Of a DNA stretch of 10,381 nucleotides, positions 1 to 10,231 are shown one piece after another. The notes under the pieces were generated by a model. The model searched no databases. It was given only the letters and a program-made list of their open reading frames with translations, and was not told where the DNA came from. Within the stretch, counting starts at the first letter, position 1. Every line of letters starts with the position of its first letter. Made by a program: the position numbers and the translations under genes. The DNA comes from a virus (taxonomy: Duplodnaviria; Heunggongvirae; Uroviricota; Caudoviricetes), in IMG/VR virus record IMGVR_UViG_3300021255_001482, positions 1-10,381 of that record; one strand, written 5' to 3'.

Positions 1-291
1 CGTAATGCTGTAAGTATGGTTGCGCGCACATTGTTTTCTGATAAAGAGCTTGAAGGTAAGTCTACCGAAGAGCGCAAGCAAATGATGGCAGAAAAGTATA
101 AGGTGGATTGGAACTTAATTCTTTCTTTCTATCGTAAGGGTGTTTGCGTGCGTAAATATGAATGTGTAGAATCTTTCACGCGGCCGGATGGCACCAAAAT
201 TGAAGTTCCTCGTAAACGTTGGAACGTAGAAAAGTGCATTCCTTCTTTCCAAGAACATCCAGAATATATAAATGAGTTAGTCAATATTTGA
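1..291 (+). CDS. thg1: Thg1-like protein (tRNA(His) guanylyltransferase / 3'-5' RNA polymerase family), C-terminal part; 5' end lies outside the window
   Basis: The frame is open from base 1 (CGT AAT GCT GTA AGT ATG...), so ATG16 is probably internal. The translation RNAVSMVARTLFSDKELEGK...EKYKVDWNLI...RKGVCVRK...RKRWNVEKCIPSF...EYINELV matches the C-terminal pattern I recognise from bacterial Thg1-like proteins (KNS(I)SMVA..F.HK.L.G...WN.L...KRG.C..K...R.RW.V...P...Y...V). The catalytic N-terminal domain is not visible. Confidence 0.85.
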   Translation, partial: RNAVSMVARTLFSDKELEGKSTEERKQMMAEKYKVDWNLILSFYRKGVCVRKYECVESFTRPDGTKIEVPRKRWNVEKCIPSFQEHPEYINELVNI

Positions 292-298
292 CTAACTC
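274..298. repeat. Perfect 11-bp inverted repeat with 3-nt spacer (operator-like palindrome or RNA hairpin)
   Basis: GAGTTAGTCAA (274-284), TAT, TTGACTAACTC (288-298). The arms are exact reverse complements. The repeat contains the thg1 stop codon and the -35 box. Confidence 0.9.
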
Positions 299-316
299 TT
301 AAATTTATGATATAAT
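288..316 (+). promoter_or_regulatory. Sigma70/SigA-type promoter with extended -10
   Basis: -35 TTGACT (288-293), 17-nt spacer, TG at 308-309 and a consensus -10 TATAAT (311-316), directly upstream of the deaminase gene. Confidence 0.85.
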
Positions 317-345
317 AATTATATCAAATGAAGGGAGAAAATATT

Positions 346-771
346 TTGAAAAGTGATAGTCATTTGTTTAGATTGGCGCGAGAATGTAGTTTCAAATCAG
401 ATTATAGCGGCTGTGGACGGGCTCGTATAGGTGCGGTAATATCCTATAAAGGCACCGTGCTCGCAAAAGGCTTTAATACTGACCGCACGCATACTGACCA
501 AGCCAAATATAATAAATGGCGTTATAAAGACAATACTTCAAAGTATCTGCCAGAGAAACTTCATGCGGAGCTCTCTGCTTTGCGGAAGATTAAATATCTT
601 GATATTGACTTTTCTAAGGTTCATATATATGTTTATCGTGAACTTAGAAATGGTAAATTGGGAATGGCTAGACCGTGTTCGGCTTGTATGGCCGCGATTA
701 AACAACTTGGTATTAAACATGTTCATTACACAACCGATAGCGGTTATGCCGCAGAAAGGATAACAGAATGA
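346..771 (+). CDS. Zn-dependent deaminase, cytidine/dCMP/TadA-like (CDA) fold; substrate unknown
   Basis: HAE motif (562-570) and PCSAC motif (673-687), plus RIGAVI, AKGFN and GIKHVHYTT segments typical of the fold. TTG346 is preferred as start because SD AAGGGAG (331-337) lies 8 nt upstream. The ORF-track ATG328 is only about 11 nt past the -10 box and has no SD. Confidence 0.85.
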   Translation: MKSDSHLFRLARECSFKSDYSGCGRARIGAVISYKGTVLAKGFNTDRTHTDQAKYNKWRYKDNTSKYLPEKLHAELSALRKIKYLDIDFSKVHIYVYRELRNGKLGMARPCSACMAAIKQLGIKHVHYTTDSGYAAERITE

Positions 772-1487
772 AACCAGTAGCGCAGATTCTTTATGGAAGT
801 CAGAATTATCATTTGAATGGCCCTGATTCTGACTGTGATTATAAACTTATCATGATGCCTGACTTCAATGATTTTTATAGCTACCATAAAGTAGATAAAA
901 ATGATTTACCCGAAGGCTATGCCCCCGAGCATTATAATGTTATGAGTATTCTTACTTTTGATAAGAATGTTCGTAAAGGTAATGTCAATGCCTTAGAAAT
1001 GCTTTTCTCTCATTATATTAAATGTGCGGGCGATATTGAAACTTATATTGATGCGGCAAAACGTGCATATGCAGAAGGTTATCTTTTCATTGTATGGGAT
1101 AGTTTTATTGCTACGGTTGAAGGTATGATTAAAAATTCGCTTGATCGCTATGGGGCCAACCGTAAATCTGCTTCGCGTGCACTATATCTTATCAATCTTT
1201 GCTCTTTCGTAGCAGAACATGATTTTGCTATGGATAATACAACCTGGGGAGAATATGAAGTTTTTTCAAGTGCGCGAGAACTTCGTTTTAATGAAGAAAG
1301 AGAACTTCCTACAAAAGAAGCAATTTTTGCGACTTTTGAAGATACGAAACGTTTTGCGGATAATTGTCGTAATTATCATCGTCTTATGTATTCTGAATCT
1401 GAACTTAATTTAATTGCGTCTTGGGACGATGATTTGGCAACTTGTATGAAAAATACTGTAAAAGGATATTTAAAGAAAGAGCTATGA
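768..1487 (+). CDS. DNA polymerase beta-superfamily nucleotidyltransferase, RlaP/T4 NrdC.11-like (Pfam PF10127-type)
   Basis: N-terminal YGSQNYHLNGPDSDCD fits GS-x9-D-x-D (Asp codons at 831 and 837). KGNVNALEMLFS resembles the KGNPNxLExL segment of this family. SD AAAGGA at 755-760; ATGA overlap with the deaminase stop. Confidence 0.8.
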   Translation: MKPVAQILYGSQNYHLNGPDSDCDYKLIMMPDFNDFYSYHKVDKNDLPEGYAPEHYNVMSILTFDKNVRKGNVNALEMLFSHYIKCAGDIETYIDAAKRAYAEGYLFIVWDSFIATVEGMIKNSLDRYGANRKSASRALYLINLCSFVAEHDFAMDNTTWGEYEVFSSARELRFNEERELPTKEAIFATFEDTKRFADNCRNYHRLMYSESELNLIASWDDDLATCMKNTVKGYLKKEL

Positions 1488-1702
1488 GTTTATTTAAAAA
1501 AGAAAAACCTAAATCAGCATTATACTATGCTCTTGATTTGCAAGTTAATGAAGCTAAAGAAGCGGGTAGAACTGCTATTTATTATCCACTAAAAGAAGAC
1601 GAAATTAAACAAGCTGAAGCTTGGGCGTTACATCATCGTTATTGGCTAAGAATTAGTCATAAAACCGAAAAAGATTTAGTTTATAAAATCAGTGGATTTT
1701 AA
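1484..1702 (+). CDS. Hypothetical protein (72 aa, MSLFKKEKPK...)
   Basis: ATG1484 overlaps the upstream TGA (ATGA) and is in frame with the ORF-track 1442..1702 ORF. No recognisable motif. Confidence 0.7.
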   Translation: MSLFKKEKPKSALYYALDLQVNEAKEAGRTAIYYPLKEDEIKQAEAWALHHRYWLRISHKTEKDLVYKISGF

Positions 1703-2983: not shown

Positions 2984-3204
2984 TGGCTTCATTTATAAGT
3001 GATTATAATAGTTTTTTACAATATGGTGGATTAAATAGAGAGGCTTTATTTTATATAATTGAATATCAAAAATATAATAACCAGTATGAAAGATATTCAA
3101 TTCTTCAAAATGAAATACTCGCACATCCGCAAGACTTCAAAGAGCGTTTAAATAATAAAGTATATCGTATTTGGCTCACGGTGCCATATGATAACCCTTG
3201 GTAA
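2980..3204 (+). CDS. Hypothetical protein (73-74 aa)
   Basis: ATGATG start overlapping the upstream stop. SD GGAGG (2971-2975) is better spaced for ATG2983. The gene ends at the terminator. Confidence 0.7.
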   Translation: MMASFISDYNSFLQYGGLNREALFYIIEYQKYNNQYERYSILQNEILAHPQDFKERLNNKVYRIWLTVPYDNPW

Positions 3205-3237
3205 GAAGAAAGTTTGAACTTTCTTCTTTTTATTTTT
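3203..3237 (+). terminator. Rho-independent terminator
   Basis: AAGAAGAAAGT (3203-3213), TTGA loop, ACTTTCTTCTT (3218-3228): an 11-bp perfect stem followed by TTTATTTTT, immediately at the end of the small-gene cluster. Confidence 0.75.
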
Positions 3238-3268: not shown

Positions 3269-6200
3269 ATGGCAATGAATGACAGCTTAAGAATAAGTAA
3301 TGATTGGAAAGTAGGCGATGATATTACTAATTATCCTGAAAAAGATTGGGAAAATGGTAATACAATTGAAGCAGATGCTCTTGATAATATTGAAATTGGA
3401 ATTAGTAATAATAGAACATTATTACAAAAAATAAATAAGATGTTAGATGATGATATTATTACTGCGATCAATAATTTAAATGAACGTACTAATAATATTG
3501 ACGAAGAAGGAATAATTGCTAGAGTAACTAGTAGTATTGGTAATAGTTTACAGGATGCTCAGGATAAAATAAATACAGCGTTAACTGAAGCCCAGCAATC
3601 AATAAACACTCAATTATCTAATTTTAATAATACTATTAGTTCATTAGTTACTATAGAGAATATATATGGTAGTAATACGATAGATAATGGCGAACAAACT
3701 TCTTTTAAAGCTTGGGTGAGTAGTCAAATTACTAATTTAGGAGTAGAAACAATAAAATCTAATGTTAATAATTTATTAAATCGTACTACTGCTTTAGAAG
3801 AACAAATAGGTGACGGTTCTGGAAGCGGAACTTTAATTTCCCGTATATCAACATTAGAAGCGTCAAATGGAAACATTCAATCTTCAATTAATAATATTCA
3901 ATCCTTAGTCGGTGAGGAATATTATAATAATTCTAGCTGGATAACAACTACTGATGATATTAGTACGCGTTTGCATGCTTTAGAGACTGCTACGGTAGAT
4001 TTATCTCCTATAGAAGCGCAAATTGATGCTATAAAAGGTGTATTAGGCATGGAAGGTGGTACAGCTGGTAGTACTTCTGATTTGGTTGGAGATGTAAATA
4101 CTGCCTTAACATTGCTATATGGATATACTATTACACAAGACCCAAATGATTCTAGTAAAAAAATAATTACAAGAAATAATAAACCTGATTTAAATGAATT
4201 TTCTCTTACTAATAGTTATCCAACTTTATATAATGATTTTTATAATGGTGCGAATGGTTCTGTTCCTGTTCAATTAGCGGGATTAGCAACAACAGTAAGT
4301 GAAAATACACAAAATATTCGCAAACTATCTACTAAAGTTGATACATATGATACTGCCATTGAATCTATTAATACAAAATATAGTGGTTCTGATATTGTTA
4401 CTTATCAAGACAGCGGGAATACGTATTTAGCACTTAAAAAAGATCGCACTCAAGACGTAGCACAATCAGAAGAAGATATTCAATCAGATACTAAAATTGA
4501 TTATGTTTTATTACCTAAAATGGGCGGCGGAGGCGGTACAGAGTATGAATTAGATGCCAACATCATACAACAAGAACAACTTCCAATCTTCCCAGTAAAT
4601 AAAATTATTACTTTAGGTAATACTTATGAAGCTAATTTTATTTGGCAGGTTACACAAAATAATACACCACAATCTTTGAATGGAGTTTTAACCGTTCGTT
4701 TAAATAATATAGTCGTTGATACTATATATATTATATCTAATACTAATTTTACATTGAATTTAGGACAATATATAACTTCTACTGGTAATAATTCATTTGT
4801 TCTATTAGTAAGTAATCCCGCGGTACGTCAGCGTACATTATATGATACTATTACTGTTTATAATGCAGTTTTAACTTCTACTTTTAATCATGACATAATC
4901 CAAACAGGCTCTACTATTAATTTCCCTTATGTTGCGGCAATTGGTTCTACAACTGTAGAAAAAACTTTACATATACAAATAGATGACAATGATATTACTT
5001 TAACAGGCAATGTAAGTACTTCTGAATCTTTACGTAGTGTTACTTTCGCAACCCCTGCTGCTGGAGACCATATATTACGAATTTGGTTCACAGCTGATAT
5101 TACAAGCAATGGCTCAAATTCAACACTTACATCTAATATTTTATCTTATGGTATACTTTGCGGTAAAAGCAACAATACACGAATCGTTACTAATCTTACA
5201 CAAACATCTATAGAACAATACAATGTTCTTAGATTTGATTATTTAGTAGTAACTCCAAACATGGAAACTACTCTAGTTAATTTTTATATCAATGATTCAG
5301 TAACGCCAATTCCTTATAGAGTTCCGGCAGAGCATAATACTTTTGAATATCCTGTAACTCAAGCTGGTGGCACGTTAACCATTCGTATTGAAGCTAATGG
5401 CGTGGAAAAAATTCTTCAATTAGAAGTTATTACAAGCACTACCTATGATTTTTCTATTGTAGATGAAGGATTAAAAGTAAAATTAGACGCTGAAGGTAGA
5501 ACAAATGTAGGAAATAATTCTGATTTAATGCAATGGAATAATACTGCTGTATTAGAAAATGATGATCCTTATAAACAGTATTATGGAACATTAAATAATA
5601 ATTTCTTATTTTATAGTGAAAATAATTATGACGGTTGGCTTCGTAATGCAAATGGCCATAACTTTTTAAGATTGCGTAACCGTGATAAAGTTAATATTAA
5701 TTTACCCGTGTTTAATTTTTCTATTTCCAATGGTAAAATTTTAGATGGTATGACTTTTGAAATTGATTTTCAAACTTCTAATGTTACTGATTATACAGCA
5801 CCAATTATTTCTTGCTTTGAGCAGGATAATGCGCAAAGTAAATCTATTATTTTTACGCCTCAAGGATTAACTATTAATAATACAACTGAATTAAAAACCC
5901 AATTTAAAGAAGAAGAACGCTTAACTATTACTATTGTTGTAGAAAATAGTGATAATGGTCCTTTATATCAATTATTTAAAATATATATCAATGGTATTTT
6001 ATCCGCGGCTACTATATATGAAACAACAGCCTTAAATTTTACAGATATTTCTAAAGGTATTATTCAAATCGGATCAGAAAAATGTACCTTAGATATTTAT
6101 TCTATTCGTTTTTATAATAGACCATTAACATTCCCAGAAGTTATTAAAAACTGGATTGCCAATGAAGATGTCTATCAAAATAAAATTAATTATTTTAATC

Positions 6201-9200
6201 GTAATAACTATGGTGCAAGTCAAGGCCGCATCACAATGACAGATAACGCTTTTACTTTAGCTTCTCCTAATACTCCTTATATGATTATCACCGGAGAAGG
6301 CGATTGGAATAATGAAGATGGTTTAAATGCAATGCCTACTACTAAAGCGGCAGGCACATTTTCTACTGAAGATAAACAAATCGTAGTAGAATATATTGAT
6401 CCTTTAGATAGCACAAAAAGTTTTACAACCAATTTTGAAGGTGGCTCAGTTGGAGTTGCCATTCAGGGTACTTCTTCTCAAGAATATAAAAGAAAAAACT
6501 ATAAAATTAAATTAAATGTTTTCCGACAAAATGGAATAACCCACGTTAAAAAACCCGCAAAATCTGCAAATAAAGATGAATATTATACAGATAATACTTA
6601 TACTGAATTAAAAGAGGGTTATACTGATAAAGGATATAAATTAATTGACACTTCTATTCCAACTTTTACTTTTTGTATAAAAGCTGATGTAGCTTCTTCT
6701 GAAAGTGCAAATAATGTGCAATTGGTAAAATTATATAATGATATAGTAAAAGGAATAGAATTGACTCCGCCACAAGGTGATAATCCTAATATCCGCCAAG
6801 GCGTTGATGGCTATCCAATGGTTGTTTGGTATTTTAATAATAAAACCAAACAATATATTTTCTTAGGAAAATATAATTTTAACAATGATAAAGGCACAGA
6901 AGAAGTATATGGATTTAAAGACGGTGATGAAAGTTGGGAAGTAGGTAATAATGAAAAATTATTATGCTTCTTTGATGAATCAGAAGATCCAACTTGGGAA
7001 AATTGGCGCACAGCTTTTGAAACACGTTTCCCAGATGATGATGATAGTCTGACAAAAAAAGAAGATCCATATACTGACGAACAGATTGCTGATCGTTTGG
7101 CTGGTTTGCGCGAAATGGTTCATTGGGTCAGTAGTAAAGTAGTATGGGATGATAATACTAAATCTAGCGTACATTTTGACATTACCCCTACTTCAGAAGA
7201 TACGGCTAATGCCGCACGTACTGGTAAATCAGCAGAGGAAGAAGCGTTTAAACGAGAATTTAAACAATATTTTAATATGAATTTAATTACATTCTTTTAT
7301 GTATTTACTGAGTTTTTCCTCATGGTTGATAATCGCGCGAAAAATATGTTTTTAACTCGTTATAAAGTTAGTAGTACCAGACCTAACAGCTCTAGTTGGC
7401 ATAATGCATATGATAGTAATGTAGTTGAACTTGCTTCTTCAACCTCTACACGTGATACGTATACTGGATGGTTTAGTTTACCTTATGATATGGATACTGC
7501 TATAGGTACTAATAATGTAGGTGTTTATACTTTTGATTATCATTATGAAAGTGGAGATTTACAACCAAGCGGTGCTGTCGTATTTAACGGACAAAAATCA
7601 AAATTATGGGTAGCTTTTGCGCAAGTATTCCCATCTGAAATTCAAAATATGTATGAACGATTTCAAACTAATATTTCATATACCTCTCTTGAAAATAGTT
7701 TTGAAGCACACCAAGGTGTGTGGTCTGAAACAGTCGTTAATGAAGATATGGATGCAAAATATATTGACTGGATTACTGCATATGACGCAAATAATCAGCC
7801 TTTAACTCGTGATACTCGTGCGCTCCCTATGTTGTTAGGTCTTAAAACAGAACAACGTAAATGGTGGCTAGAAAATAGATTTAAATATTTTAATAGTAAG
7901 TATGCAATAAACGCTAACACAGATTTTATTTCTTTAGGCGCGCGAAGCGGCCTATTACATATTCCAGTATCTGTTTATGCAGACGCTTATGTAACATTTA
8001 AAGTCGGTGCGCAAGATAGTGCTCCTACTACTATTCGTTTGGCGGCTGGACAGTCGGGAATAATTGAACGTTATGCTACAGGAGAGGGAGGCTCAGACCG
8101 CGTAGAGTCTAGTGTCTCACCAGCTTCTAGAATTAGTTCAATTGAAAATTTAGCATCATTAGACTTATTAAATGTTGATTTTACTAGAGCAACTAGACTT
8201 CAAACATTGCGTCTAGGAAGTGCTAATGTAATTAATACTCGTTTGACTTCTATTTCTTTATCTGGTAATAAACTATTAAGATTATTTGACTTACGTAATT
8301 ATGCTGCTTATACAGCAGACTTATCTGTAAATGAATGCTATAATTTGGAATACATTTATTTAAGTGGCACTCAAATTACAAATGTCAATTTACCACAAGG
8401 CGGCGTATTAAAAACTATTCAGTATCCTACAACTATTAATACTATTAGAATTATAAATCAGCCTTATTTAGAGAATTTAATTATAGGAGCATATTTACCA
8501 GCAGACGAGATTACTGATAGTGAGAACGAAGTTCTCTTTAATGGAAATAATGATTATAGTAATATTACTTCTATTATATTAGATAATATAAGTGAAAATA
8601 TAGATATTCCAACAATGATTAATAATGCTACTAATTTATCTAATTGTAGTTTAAGTAATTTAACTTTCAAAATGACTACTGAAGATTTCCGCGTTTTCTT
8701 TAATAAACTAGTTGCTGTTAATGCCTCTATTACTAATTGCATTATTTATCTTGAAACCGCAATGCCATCTGACTTTACTGTATCTGATATTACTTCAAAA
8801 TTTGATTTTAAAGTTTATGGTAAAACCGAAGAAGGATATGCAGAATATTATAATGTGCGTTTTTATGGATTTAGCAATGAATTAATTGGTACTAGTAGTG
8901 TAGTAAAAGGTGCTAGTATAGATGGCCCAACCTCATACTTTACTGATGAATATTTAGATAATTATAATGGTTTAACTGAAGAAAATAAACCAGAACATCC
9001 AACACGAGTTGGATTTGGTGGATGGAATCCTGCACCAGTAAATATTCAGAGTGATTTGAGCGCGCGACCAATATCGCGTGATGAATATAGAATGGAATAC
9101 CATTATCTAGATGAAAATGTACAACCCAAAATTACTTATACTTATTTAGCTCCAGGTGAACAAATTACTGGTATTATTATCAATGATTTTATTAAAGATT

Positions 9201-10231
9201 ACTATACTTATAAATATAAACACTGGACAAGTGATTCTAATATACCAACAAATTATCCGAATGATGATGAACGTGCGAATGTTTACGATACTGCCTCTAT
9301 TATATATAAACAAGCTAAAGTAGAAGCGTGGTATGCTGTTTATAATCATGATGAAGCGGCTACATATAATATTTCTGTATATAATACAAATATTCATGGA
9401 GAAAAAGTTGGCGAGCCCATAGCTGTATTGAAACGTACAGTGATTGCGGGAACAACCGCTGGGAATACAGTCACAGAAAGTGCTTTAGAACAATATAAAC
9501 CAGCTATAAATGTTTTAGCCGCGGATGGAAGTAATGAATTAAATGTACCAATAGATGAACGTAAATATCAATTCTTGGGTTGGAATCCTCGTATTGATTC
9601 TAACTTTAATTTACGAGTTACTGGTAATCAAGACATTTTGTTGACTTATTATAAAACAGATGATTATTATACTAATTATTTCTTAAATAAGTTAACCAAG
9701 TGTACATTAAATAATATTTCTTCAATTAATGATGGCGCGTTTTATCATAATACTAATTTTGTAAAATTAGAAACAAGAGCAACAACGATTGGAAAATATT
9801 GTTTCGCTAATTTTACTAATAATAATATTCGGAATTATTTTATTTTTAATGGTAATGGTGATATTACTTTAGGTGCCTACTGTTTTTATGGTATAAATAA
9901 TGCTATTATTATTTTTAATAATACTGGTCATATAATAGTAGATAACAGTTGTTTCTATAGAGTAACAAATTGTATTATTATAACACCTAATGCTACATTA
10001 CCAATTATTAATGCTACAGACGCTACAGGAAGTTTTGATAACTTCTTAAATAGTTCTAATACTCTTTATGTCAACTCAACAGTTTATAATGATATTTATA
10101 ATTCCGCAAATGCAAATAATTATTCTATTCCTACTTATTTAATAAACACAGCGAAAGAGCGTATTGTACCAATCACCGCAAACAATCAAGCTACAGTAAA
10201 TAGCCTTATTGAGGAGGCGAATAAAGCATGA
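3269..10231 (+). CDS. 2320-aa multidomain putative phage tail fibre/adhesin with CotH-like kinase, LamG-like, LRR, InlB B-repeat-like and BspA-LRR domains
   Basis: Uninterrupted 6963-nt ORF with a strong SD. N-terminal WENGNTIEADALDNIEIGI motif; coiled coil with RISTLE and RLHALE; MGGGGG hinge (4520-4537); then the domain motifs listed in the entries below. No N-terminal signal peptide is visible. Virion location is inferred. Confidence 0.85.
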   Translation: MAMNDSLRISNDWKVGDDITNYPEKDWENGNTIEADALDNIEIGISNNRTLLQKINKMLDDDIITAINNLNERTNNIDEEGIIARVTSSIGNSLQDAQDKINTALTEAQQSINTQLSNFNNTISSLVTIENIYGSNTIDNGEQTSFKAWVSSQITNLGVETIKSNVNNLLNRTTALEEQIGDGSGSGTLISRISTLEASNGNIQSSINNIQSLVGEEYYNNSSWITTTDDISTRLHALETATVDLSPIEAQIDAIKGVLGMEGGTAGSTSDLVGDVNTALTLLYGYTITQDPNDSSKKIITRNNKPDLNEFSLTNSYPTLYNDFYNGANGSVPVQLAGLATTVSENTQNIRKLSTKVDTYDTAIESINTKYSGSDIVTYQDSGNTYLALKKDRTQDVAQSEEDIQSDTKIDYVLLPKMGGGGGTEYELDANIIQQEQLPIFPVNKIITLGNTYEANFIWQVTQNNTPQSLNGVLTVRLNNIVVDTIYIISNTNFTLNLGQYITSTGNNSFVLLVSNPAVRQRTLYDTITVYNAVLTSTFNHDIIQTGSTINFPYVAAIGSTTVEKTLHIQIDDNDITLTGNVSTSESLRSVTFATPAAGDHILRIWFTADITSNGSNSTLTSNILSYGILCGKSNNTRIVTNLTQTSIEQYNVLRFDYLVVTPNMETTLVNFYINDSVTPIPYRVPAEHNTFEYPVTQAGGTLTIRIEANGVEKILQLEVITSTTYDFSIVDEGLKVKLDAEGRTNVGNNSDLMQWNNTAVLENDDPYKQYYGTLNNNFLFYSENNYDGWLRNANGHNFLRLRNRDKVNINLPVFNFSISNGKILDGMTFEIDFQTSNVTDYTAPIISCFEQDNAQSKSIIFTPQGLTINNTTELKTQFKEEERLTITIVVENSDNGPLYQLFKIYINGILSAATIYETTALNFTDISKGIIQIGSEKCTLDIYSIRFYNRPLTFPEVIKNWIANEDVYQNKINYFNRNNYGASQGRITMTDNAFTLASPNTPYMIITGEGDWNNEDGLNAMPTTKAAGTFSTEDKQIVVEYIDPLDSTKSFTTNFEGGSVGVAIQGTSSQEYKRKNYKIKLNVFRQNGITHVKKPAKSANKDEYYTDNTYTELKEGYTDKGYKLIDTSIPTFTFCIKADVASSESANNVQLVKLYNDIVKGIELTPPQGDNPNIRQGVDGYPMVVWYFNNKTKQYIFLGKYNFNNDKGTEEVYGFKDGDESWEVGNNEKLLCFFDESEDPTWENWRTAFETRFPDDDDSLTKKEDPYTDEQIADRLAGLREMVHWVSSKVVWDDNTKSSVHFDITPTSEDTANAARTGKSAEEEAFKREFKQYFNMNLITFFYVFTEFFLMVDNRAKNMFLTRYKVSSTRPNSSSWHNAYDSNVVELASSTSTRDTYTGWFSLPYDMDTAIGTNNVGVYTFDYHYESGDLQPSGAVVFNGQKSKLWVAFAQVFPSEIQNMYERFQTNISYTSLENSFEAHQGVWSETVVNEDMDAKYIDWITAYDANNQPLTRDTRALPMLLGLKTEQRKWWLENRFKYFNSKYAINANTDFISLGARSGLLHIPVSVYADAYVTFKVGAQDSAPTTIRLAAGQSGIIERYATGEGGSDRVESSVSPASRISSIENLASLDLLNVDFTRATRLQTLRLGSANVINTRLTSISLSGNKLLRLFDLRNYAAYTADLSVNECYNLEYIYLSGTQITNVNLPQGGVLKTIQYPTTINTIRIINQPYLENLIIGAYLPADEITDSENEVLFNGNNDYSNITSIILDNISENIDIPTMINNATNLSNCSLSNLTFKMTTEDFRVFFNKLVAVNASITNCIIYLETAMPSDFTVSDITSKFDFKVYGKTEEGYAEYYNVRFYGFSNELIGTSSVVKGASIDGPTSYFTDEYLDNYNGLTEENKPEHPTRVGFGGWNPAPVNIQSDLSARPISRDEYRMEYHYLDENVQPKITYTYLAPGEQITGIIINDFIKDYYTYKYKHWTSDSNIPTNYPNDDERANVYDTASIIYKQAKVEAWYAVYNHDEAATYNISVYNTNIHGEKVGEPIAVLKRTVIAGTTAGNTVTESALEQYKPAINVLAADGSNELNVPIDERKYQFLGWNPRIDSNFNLRVTGNQDILLTYYKTDDYYTNYFLNKLTKCTLNNISSINDGAFYHNTNFVKLETRATTIGKYCFANFTNNNIRNYFIFNGNGDITLGAYCFYGINNAIIIFNNTGHIIVDNSCFYRVTNCIIITPNATLPIINATDATGSFDNFLNSSNTLYVNSTVYNDIYNSANANNYSIPTYLINTAKERIVPITANNQATVNSLIEEANKA
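5468..6155 (+). other. LamG/concanavalin A-like beta-sandwich domain (within the giant ORF); boundaries approximate
   Basis: Starts GLKVKLDAEGRTN; contains TFEIDF and FKIYINGILS; ends IQIGSEKCTLDIYSIRFYNRPLT, a typical LamG C-terminal strand pattern. Confidence 0.65.
6270..7903 (+). other. CotH-like atypical protein kinase domain (within the giant ORF); boundaries approximate
   Basis: IQGTSSQEYKRKNYKIK (6461-6511), FCIKAD (6671-6688), GKYNFNNDK, MVDNRAKNMF (D at 7328, N at 7343), PYDMD (7481-7495) and WWLENRFKYF. Confidence 0.75.
8132..8660 (+). other. Leucine-rich repeat region (within the giant ORF); boundaries approximate
   Basis: LQTLRLG, LTSISLSGNKLLRLFDL, LEYIYLSGTQITNVNLP, LKTIQYP, LENLIIG and LSNCSLSNL give recurring LxxLxL periodicity. 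Confidence 0.7.
8846..9656 (+). other. About three InlB B-repeat/Flg_new-like units (within the giant ORF)
   Basis: Units begin YNVRFY, YRMEYHY and YNISVY, and contain GFGGWNP, YKYKHW and YQFLGWNP respectively; the last ends VTGNQDILLTYY. Confidence 0.6.
9704..10180 (+). other. BspA-type (LRR_5) repeats with C-terminal cap (within the giant ORF)
   Basis: SSINDGAFY, TTIGKYCFA, ITLGAYCFY and IVDNSCFY repeats, then LYVNSTVYN...ERIVPI, resembling the usual BspA C-cap. Confidence 0.7.

Follow-up and report, generated by a model that had tools for sequence, protein, structure and literature searches.

A Thg1-like protein and a divergent RlaP-like nucleotidyltransferase in a candidate RNA-end repair gene set of a large uncultured phage

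Introduction

RlaP, RNA ligases, CCA-adding enzymes and, sporadically, Thg1 have been described as an RNA-repair complement of large phages (Iyer et al., 2021; PMC7824862), and in jumbo phages this complement has been read as restoring RNA ends after attack by host RNases (PMC7824862). The concept of phage RNA repair by RlaP and Thg1 is already published in this form (PMC7824862). In phage T4, the genes rnlA, alc, pseT and cd are co-directional within 5.3 kb, with cd being a biochemically proven dCMP deaminase gene. Another T4 protein, NrdC.11, is a member of the RlaP family (PMC12776372). Here, we describe three consecutive genes that encode a Thg1-like 3'-5' polymerase (TLP), a zinc deaminase of the cytidine deaminase (CDA) fold and a nucleotidyltransferase (NTase) related to RlaP. 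All three are present on the + strand at the start of a stretch of 10,381 bases, hereafter the window, which comprises the first bases (G000:C1:1-10381) of the 103-kb IMG/VR viral contig IMGVR_UViG_3300021255_001482 (completeness estimate 58%).

For two of these proteins, activities of relatives have been published. Bacterial TLPs repair 5'-truncated tRNAs (PMC3061083, PMC6471195); their additions are templated by Watson-Crick pairing, G is placed inefficiently opposite A73, and the motif HINNLYN serves for anticodon recognition in eukaryotic Thg1 (PMC6471195). RlaP extends damaged RNA 3' ends by one or two nucleoside monophosphates, heavily damaged tRNA does not regain aminoacylation without it, and the RlaP homologues tested so far are active on RNA only (PMC12776372). 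The fold of PfRlaP consists of a Pol-beta core with three catalytic aspartates and a C-terminal helical domain, with a cleft between them (PMC12776372).

The source of the window is a large uncultured phage of ~170-185 kb with its own tRNA set; its genome is AT-rich and contains 29 tRNA genes, all of which encode CCA. No match was obtained for the first 3.3 kb in a megablast search against GenBank phages, and an Rfam scan of the window returned no family. A sequence-only reading of the window had proposed that the three genes form a tRNA repair-and-editing kit. Our comparison with related contigs makes it reasonably likely that the TLP, the RlaP-like NTase, a kinase-HD fusion protein and an RNA ligase of the Rnl1 type are members of one RNA-end repair set; the deaminase, which shares the operon of the NTase, most likely serves the nucleotide pool as a dCMP (or dCTP) deaminase. 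Family membership, intact catalytic motifs, gene order, the promoter and the gene overlaps were observed directly.

Results

Thg1-like protein

The window opens at the start of the contig; it therefore lacks an upstream flank, and its first open frame (1-291) is truncated there. This frame matches phrog_4717 ('tRNA-His guanylyltransferase') over residues 1-95 with an E value of 1e-13, and Pfam Thg1C with an E value of 1.3e-3, which is under the Pfam threshold. Homology therefore covers the C-terminal (fingers) domain, and the catalytic N-terminal domain, which makes up two thirds of a TLP, lies off the contig. Four related contigs (L006-L009) were retrieved via the NTase, and three of them encode a full-length TLP at the equivalent place. 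These proteins of 273-276 residues all contain the motifs RLDGKAF and QSDEIS, and the C-termini of two full-length relatives are 86-89% identical to the window fragment. The full-length protein of L006 (gene at L006:6471-7292) matches Pfam Thg1 (PF04446) at 4e-30, and a six-frame search detected Thg1 at ~1e-30 in the same three records as the full-length TLPs. Because the full-length relatives are highly identical and carry the Thg1 domain, the window gene is almost certainly an intact gene cut by the assembly. The upstream catalytic domain, the lack of which the sequence-only reading had named as a finding that would count against it, is thus present in the relatives.

At the position of the eukaryotic HINNLYN motif, the relatives and the window protein contain (Q/E)RNAVSM (RNAVSM in the window copy). 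The absence of HINNLYN places the protein in the TLP type, whose members are template-dependent; a eukaryote-type enzyme that adds G-1 was rejected for the lack of this motif. Bacterial TLPs, such as that of Bacillus thuringiensis, share with the phage proteins the PF04446 domain and the RLDGKAF and QSDEIS motifs (both seen in the relatives), as well as the absence of HINNLYN. The present case differs in that the window holds the C-terminal third alone and in that the setting is a phage. Annotated Thg1-like homologues, ~40-46% identical, are carried by 164 GenBank phage records. In the literature, we found no assay of any phage TLP or of members of the divergent RlaP branch described below.

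RlaP-like nucleotidyltransferase

The NTase matches phrog_388 ('nucleotidyltransferase') at 4.5e-13 and contains the conserved residues G10-S11, D22-x-D24 and D65, which constitute a Pol-beta signature. It has no Pfam match, and PF10127 (RlaP) was detected neither by hmmscan at E <= 0.1 nor in a six-frame search of the genome at E <= 10. A word-indexed search returned 76 NTase clusters with identities of 39-97%, none of which bears a Pfam label, and HMMER, run in full against 1.8 billion representatives, yielded 231 relatives. The link to RlaP emerges through these homologues: 14 of 43 sampled phmmer homologues match PF10127, the best of them at 5.5e-11, and no other family is comparable. Furthermore, the tblastn matches in Bacillus and Brevibacillus phages are annotated nucleotidyltransferases, which match PF10127 at 8.5e-7 and 7.6e-10 and the hidden Markov model of the present NTase clade at 2e-18 and 1e-20.

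An AlphaFold (AF2) model of the NTase calculated with 24 homologues has a predicted local distance difference test score (pLDDT) of 94.3 and a predicted TM score of 0.90. It consists of an N-terminal alpha/beta NTase domain, with its strands in residues 2-60, and a helical domain (residues 90-238). A phmmer search against PDB sequences gave noise only, and Foldseek and VIA-align returned generic Pol-beta NTases only (Hailong HalB with a Z score of 6.5, GlnE and aminoglycoside NTases), none of them decisive; the PfRlaP structure was not among the matches in the copy of the PDB that was searched.

The protein thus resembles RlaP (PF10127; PfRlaP and PaRlaP of Pseudomonas) in combining a GS...DxD...D Pol-beta core with a helical domain at the C-terminus, in having homologues that grade into PF10127 and in the presence of RNA ligase genes in the same genome. 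It differs from RlaP in lying under the detection limit of PF10127, in forming a clade of its own without a precomputed Pfam label and in that the ligase is not adjacent. The NTase therefore appears to represent a divergent branch of the RlaP superfamily and not a certified member. The assignment to RlaP made from the sequence alone holds at the superfamily level, via the homologues, and does not extend to a direct match to PF10127.

Deaminase

The deaminase comprises 141 residues when translated from TTG 346 and 147 residues from ATG 328, the start chosen in the sequence-only reading. A Shine-Dalgarno sequence, AAGGGAG, is located at 331-337 with TTG 346 placed 8 nt beyond it, and the relatives use a start codon equivalent to TTG 346. 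Since, in addition, a message starting from the promoter described below would leave ATG 328 nearly leaderless, TTG 346 is the more likely start.

The protein matches PF00383 at 7e-11 (42.3 bits against a cut-off of 25) and the dCMP deaminase family phrog_174 at 4.5e-15. The zinc site is formed by the motifs H79-A-E81 and P116-C-S-A-C120, and the catalytic histidine and glutamate and both cysteines are invariant across 18 family members, which suggests that the deaminase is probably an active enzyme. A profile of these 18 members matches the solved structures 4p9c (the dCMP deaminase of cyanophage S-TIM5) at 6e-8 and 2hvv (the dCMP deaminase of Streptococcus mutans) at 2e-5, in both cases over the whole catalytic domain. 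Chains of TadA match profile positions 3-51 only, with E values of 0.006-0.5. TadA uses a C-terminal helix on tRNA; the present protein ends 11-27 residues past the last core strand, and this short C-terminus leaves no room for a helix of that type. The deaminase groups with dCMP deaminases and not with TadA-type tRNA adenosine deaminases, to which the N-terminal ~50 residues alone match, weakly.

With 4P9C and 2HVV the deaminase shares, besides the whole-domain match, the HxE and PCxxC motifs and a long segment between GxN and HAE. The motif G(Y/W)NG is typical of classical dCMP deaminases, and here GWNG/GYNG is replaced by GFNT (AHNT in a second subclade). Further differences are an extra insert of ~10 residues (YRExxxGxxA) before PCxxC and invariant residues specific to the family. 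An RNA-editing role for this enzyme is possible but unsupported, and we consider it improbable. In sum, the motifs read from the sequence in the three consecutive genes (the Thg1 C-terminus, HAE/PCxxC and GS..DxD) were all found, and the calls of Thg1 and of a CDA-fold deaminase are borne out by the PHROG and Pfam matches given above.

Gene neighbourhood in relatives

Gene neighbourhoods were compared in 19 NTase-bearing contigs of the clade, our own window included. The gene order, seen in ~18 related contigs, is Rnl1 ligase ... kinase-HD ... kinase-fold protein - TLP - deaminase - NTase. The deaminase gene lies directly upstream of the NTase gene in 18 of the 19 contigs and often overlaps or abuts it; sometimes a small open reading frame (ORF) or up to 1.4 kb intervenes. 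In 13 contigs the TLP gene is directly upstream of the deaminase gene, and in one more it is 4 kb off (14 within 5 kb). In all contigs with enough upstream sequence, the position of the TLP gene is directly preceded by the gene of a 259-residue protein, a 293-residue kinase-HD protein is encoded 3-7 kb upstream and an Rnl1-type RNA ligase (PF09511) 7-15 kb upstream, the latter two in the same orientation. The block is kept down to 38% NTase identity, and the genes downstream of it move. The upstream flank had been singled out in the sequence-only reading as a place to look for RNA ligase and Pnkp genes; in the relatives, it indeed holds Rnl1 and a Pnkp-like kinase-HD gene.

The kinase domain of the kinase-HD fusion is similar to that of bacterial Pnkp (1e-10), and the HD domain to those of CCA-adding enzymes. 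The fusion is a plausible candidate for an RNA end-healing enzyme in which the HD domain would replace the T4-type phosphatase. Searches for ligases in five genomes detected PF09511 in four and PF09414 in three, and RtcB, ThyA and ThyX were not found in any of the five. In the window's own genome, the PF09414 ligase is encoded at 48541-49053, among tRNA genes and 47 kb from the NTase. RNA ligase genes thus lie 7-15 kb (Rnl1, relatives) or 47 kb (PF09414, own genome) from the NTase gene and none is adjacent to it.

The 259-residue protein has no Pfam or PHROG match. It carries motifs like those of protein kinases, namely a lysine in VKFD, a glutamate in CERE, NDLHxxN and IDYSG, and its AF2 model (pLDDT 88.8) gave weak matches to kinase-fold proteins only (AceK, SidJ and Mps1). 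In the rearranged relative L084, its gene is situated between those of Rnl1 and kinase-HD.

Transcription signals and operon layout

The sequence-only reading had placed a promoter between thg1 and the other two genes, and a promoter-like sequence, TTGACT-N17-TATAAT, is present there; it also has a TG extension (extended -10). The same motif, of ~60 nt with a near-consensus TTGACT-N17-TGnTATAAT core, recurs at four or more other positions of the genome (near 45101, 48366, 53618 and 55769), and the recurrent copies are followed ~15-25 nt downstream by a Shine-Dalgarno sequence. The window copy alone is embedded in an 11-bp palindrome, whose hairpin covers both the stop codon of thg1 and the -35 hexamer. 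The promoter looks real and probably drives a deaminase-NTase operon. The two genes are coupled by an ATGA overlap at 768-771, as had been read from the sequence, with the NTase start codon (ATG, 768-770) placed on the stop codon of the deaminase (TGA, 769-771). Because the promoter and the hairpin stand between thg1 and the deaminase gene, thg1 would belong to an upstream transcription unit, and the deaminase, the NTase and a 72-residue ORF would form the head of the next. Homologues of this ORF (MxLFKK...) directly follow the NTase in the ORF lists of L006-L009; it has no Pfam or PHROG match. Coordinates are summarized in Table 1.

Table 1. Features of the window, of its genome and of related contigs
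Feature	Coordinates	Strand	Basis or remark
C-terminal 96 residues of Thg1-like 3'-5' polymerase (TLP)	1..291	+	phrog_4717, Thg1C, identity to relatives
Perfect 11-bp palindromic hairpin, possible terminator of upstream unit	274..298	.	terminator-like on both strands
Sigma-70-type promoter, TTGACT-N17-(TG)TATAAT	288..316	+	11/12 matches, best in region
CDA-fold zinc deaminase, dCMP-deaminase-like	346..771	+	PF00383, phrog_174, structure-profile matches
Divergent RlaP-superfamily Pol-beta nucleotidyltransferase, 239 residues	768..1487	+	phrog_388, homology chain, AF2 model
Conserved 72-residue ORF, apparently in the same operon	1484..1702	+	ATGA overlap with NTase stop at 1484-1487
tRNA-His(GTG), own genome, outside window	G000:C1:38303-38376 (L091:204-277)		
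Kinase-HD fusion, 293 residues, AAA_33 kinase + HD phosphohydrolase	L006:3181-4062, L008:3142-4026		
Conserved 259-residue kinase-fold protein	L006:5676-6455	+	directly upstream of TLP gene

Independence of the three genes

The TLP gene can be lost while its neighbours stay in place. It is absent from one complete genome and from one that is estimated to be 91% complete (G006 and G016), and an identical deaminase protein is encoded on contigs with and without it. Contigs without the TLP gene still carry the final ~50 nt of thg1, fused after the upstream gene and followed by the intact promoter (L072:2470-2800 compared with L071:4000-5100); the loss is a clean recent deletion that spared the promoter of the downstream operon. 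In L075, L080 and L081, no NTase, TLP or kinase-HD gene lies within 10 kb of the deaminase gene; in L084 and L088, the deaminase gene is not accompanied by the NTase gene, and Rnl1 and kinase-HD genes are near.

Neighbours within +/-10 kb were also scored at 75 TLP loci outside the clade. A Pnk-like kinase is encoded near 40 of these loci (12 of them with E <= 1e-14 and ~2 kb away), an RlaP-like NTase near seven and this deaminase family near one. As seven of 75 is about what chance would give in a 180-kb genome, the adjacency of TLP and RlaP outside the clade bears no sign of selection. The Bacillus phages FADO and PK-3 have both TLP and RlaP, tens of kb apart. No deaminase, Pnk or kinase-fold partner was found around the distant RlaP relatives that Bacillus and Brevibacillus phages encode, nor in TLP neighbourhoods in Bacillus and Staphylococcus phages. 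Because the TLP gene appears to be separately transcribed and is deleted in close relatives, we regard the trio as a lineage-specific synteny block and not as a demonstrated unit. The proposal that the three genes act as one unit is not supported, given that the deaminase occurs alone and is absent at 74 of the 75 outside loci and that the TLP gene is deletable.

Phage tRNA-His

The tRNA-His of the phage has an encoded G at -1, U73 and acceptor-stem mismatches at 4:69 and 5:68. The discriminator of bacterial tRNA-His is C73. Among the 29 tRNAs of this genome, only tRNA-His has two acceptor-stem mismatches. The tRNA-His of the relative G002 is the same except that C5 is changed to T, with the mismatch kept, and that of G001 has A73 and no encoded CCA. 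In the relatives, tRNA-His was typed using Rfam tRNA hits and aragorn, as BLAST with tRNA-His genes was too insensitive. The TLP is present in all three genomes with tRNA-His, and both TLP-less genomes are without it; in the complete genomes G003 and G009, the TLP is present and tRNA-His was not detected. The association is not significant (n = 7 related genomes).

The tRNA region of G003 (L014-L042) also contains a tRNA with a CTA anticodon, called 'Pyl' by aragorn, which is possibly an amber suppressor for stop-codon reassignment late in infection.

Other genes of the island

In the complete relative G002, the same island encodes a PurZ-like adenylosuccinate-synthetase homologue (L007:4185-5261; phrog_1211 at 4.5e-33), which hints at possible 2-aminoadenine in the DNA of this phage; a homing endonuclease and many small ORFs are also found in the island. 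The sequence-only reading had itself cautioned that phage early regions gather nucleotide-handling genes, and the PurZ-like gene fits this caveat. Downstream of the block, L071:7184-7972 encodes a phosphoribosyltransferase-like protein (a weak PF00156 match), and L007:11257-12590 is likewise downstream of it, with an ORF (11257-11778) whose N-terminus may resemble that of isochorismatase/nicotinamidase. These genes are possible candidates for nicotinamide adenine dinucleotide salvage or counter-defence. In the window itself, a terminator-like hairpin (3203-3228) precedes a single ORF of 2320 residues (3269-10231, + strand), for which Pfam gave no family at E <= 0.001.

Discussion

From the families and their arrangement, we infer all biochemical activities and the biological role of the set as follows. 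The window opens within what would be an early-gene island of a large phage. The TLP, like the studied members of its family, would replace missing 5' nucleotides of tRNA by 3'-5' addition, using the 3' strand of the acceptor stem as template, and the RlaP-like NTase would extend damaged RNA 3' ends by one or two nucleotides. Their partners would be the Rnl1-type ligase and the kinase-HD enzyme, whose genes lie a few kb upstream in the relatives, and the set may restore tRNAs, of the host or of the phage, after cleavage or trimming by anticodon nucleases of the host or by other RNases. The deaminase would feed dUMP to the host thymidylate synthase for the AT-rich genome; it appears to share the promoter and translational coupling with the NTase, and a mechanistic tie between the two is improbable. 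The earlier notion of repair and editing is therefore retained in its first half, with Rnl1 and kinase-HD genes upstream in the relatives, and not in its second, as the deaminase groups with dCMP deaminases.

This arrangement resembles that of T4 in that one phage combines an Rnl1-type ligase, a P-loop kinase of the polynucleotide-kinase type and an RlaP-superfamily NTase, with a gene of the dCMP-deaminase type a few kb away and the order ligase - kinase - deaminase. It differs in that the kinase is fused to an HD phosphoesterase, unlike the partner of the T4 kinase, in that the NTase gene adjoins the deaminase gene and is elsewhere in T4, and in that the TLP and the kinase-fold protein are added to what is here a putative repair set. 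The location of T4 cd beside repair genes provides a precedent for a dCMP deaminase in such a place without a known functional link. Compared with the jumbo-phage complement, the differences are that a term search did not find the word 'deaminase' in the main text of the survey (PMC7824862), that no kinase-fold neighbour is given there (PMC7824862) and that the NTase here is of a divergent branch.

Several observations weigh against the interpretation as a repair set with a nucleotide-pool enzyme beside it. The NTase falls below PF10127, its best structural match is weak (HalB, Z 6.5) and a non-RNA substrate is conceivable; the TLP gene has been deleted in several close relatives and is hence dispensable; and the proximity of TLP and RlaP outside the clade (7/75, 10 kb) is roughly at chance level. 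An alternative view is that no functional connection exists at all, the genes being nucleotide-handling genes of an early region held together by shared ancestry only, with a substrate of the NTase other than RNA. The promoter and hairpin that split thg1 from the other two genes, the repeated deletion of the TLP gene, the other contents of the island (the PurZ-like gene, the homing endonuclease and the many small ORFs), the resemblance of the NTase model to HalB, GlnE and aminoglycoside NTases, and the origin of all block-bearing contigs from one phage group would all be expected on that view. However, a random draw would not be expected to place four or five RNA-end enzymes (Rnl1, kinase-HD, TLP and RlaP-like NTase) on the same strand within 15 kb, the proximity of TLP and Pnk recurs in unrelated phages and the tested RlaP homologues act only on RNA (PMC12776372), so that we hold a lack of connection to be unlikely, although the least so among the alternatives. 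Maturation of the phage's own tRNA-His by the TLP, either by addition of G-1 or by rebuilding of the 5' strand of its mismatched acceptor stem, would fit the presence of the TLP in all three genomes with tRNA-His and the lack of this tRNA in both TLP-less genomes, as well as the odd U73 and two mismatches (own genome and G002) and the A73 and missing CCA of G001. It is retained as a minor rival and is decidedly unlikely, because the association among seven genomes is not significant and the chemistry fits poorly: G003 and G009 have the TLP with no tRNA-His detected, G-1 is already encoded, HINNLYN is absent, A73 is a poor template for TLPs and U73 would direct the addition of A (PMC6471195), and the known 5' editing repairs positions 1-3 and not 4-5.

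The remaining points of doubt concern the deaminase. It is without GYNG (GFNT or AHNT instead) and has invariant residues of its own and the ~10-residue insert, which are not seen in the solved dCMP deaminases; neither ThyA nor ThyX was found in the two complete relatives that were searched, so that a host enzyme must take over if the product is dUMP; and its near-universal adjacency to the NTase (18/19 clade contigs), with a frequent 4-nt overlap, could mean a functional link. Taken together with its recurrence near Rnl1 and kinase-HD in L084 and L088, this could be read as a single tRNA repair-and-editing kit of all three enzymes, with the deaminase acting on tRNA or other RNA (C-to-U or A-to-I). 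We judge such a kit to be very unlikely: full-length similarity is to dCMP deaminases, with TadA matching weakly over the N-terminal ~50 residues; the C-terminus is too short for the TadA helix; the deaminase is found without NTase, TLP or Pnk genes within 10 kb in L075, L080 and L081; it occurs at one of the 75 TLP loci outside the clade and is absent beside the Bacillus and Brevibacillus RlaP relatives; and in T4 a dCMP deaminase of proven activity is encoded in this same neighbourhood. A narrower version, to which we likewise give little credence, would make the coupled deaminase and NTase a two-enzyme device on the same RNA, in which, for example, the deaminase edits or marks a cytidine in the end or a loop of a damaged tRNA and the NTase then rebuilds it. 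Its extension, in which the TLP might resynthesize the mismatched 5' strand of tRNA-His and the whole would be a phage pathway of tRNA editing and repair, is just as doubtful.

Conclusions

For annotation, the family of 239-residue 'hypothetical proteins' to which the NTase belongs can be labelled RlaP-like, the start of the deaminase gene should be set at 346, and the TLP gene can be treated as an accessory gene that is lost by deletion in close relatives. The kind of system proposed here has been described before, and its only new element, the deaminase as an editing partner, is its weakest part. If the proposed repair set is real, this phage group has one of the fuller RNA-mending kits, with enzymes for ligation, end healing (kinase/phosphoesterase), 3'-end addition and 5'-end rebuilding, and would be a good source of enzymes for studying how phages undo host defences that cleave tRNA.

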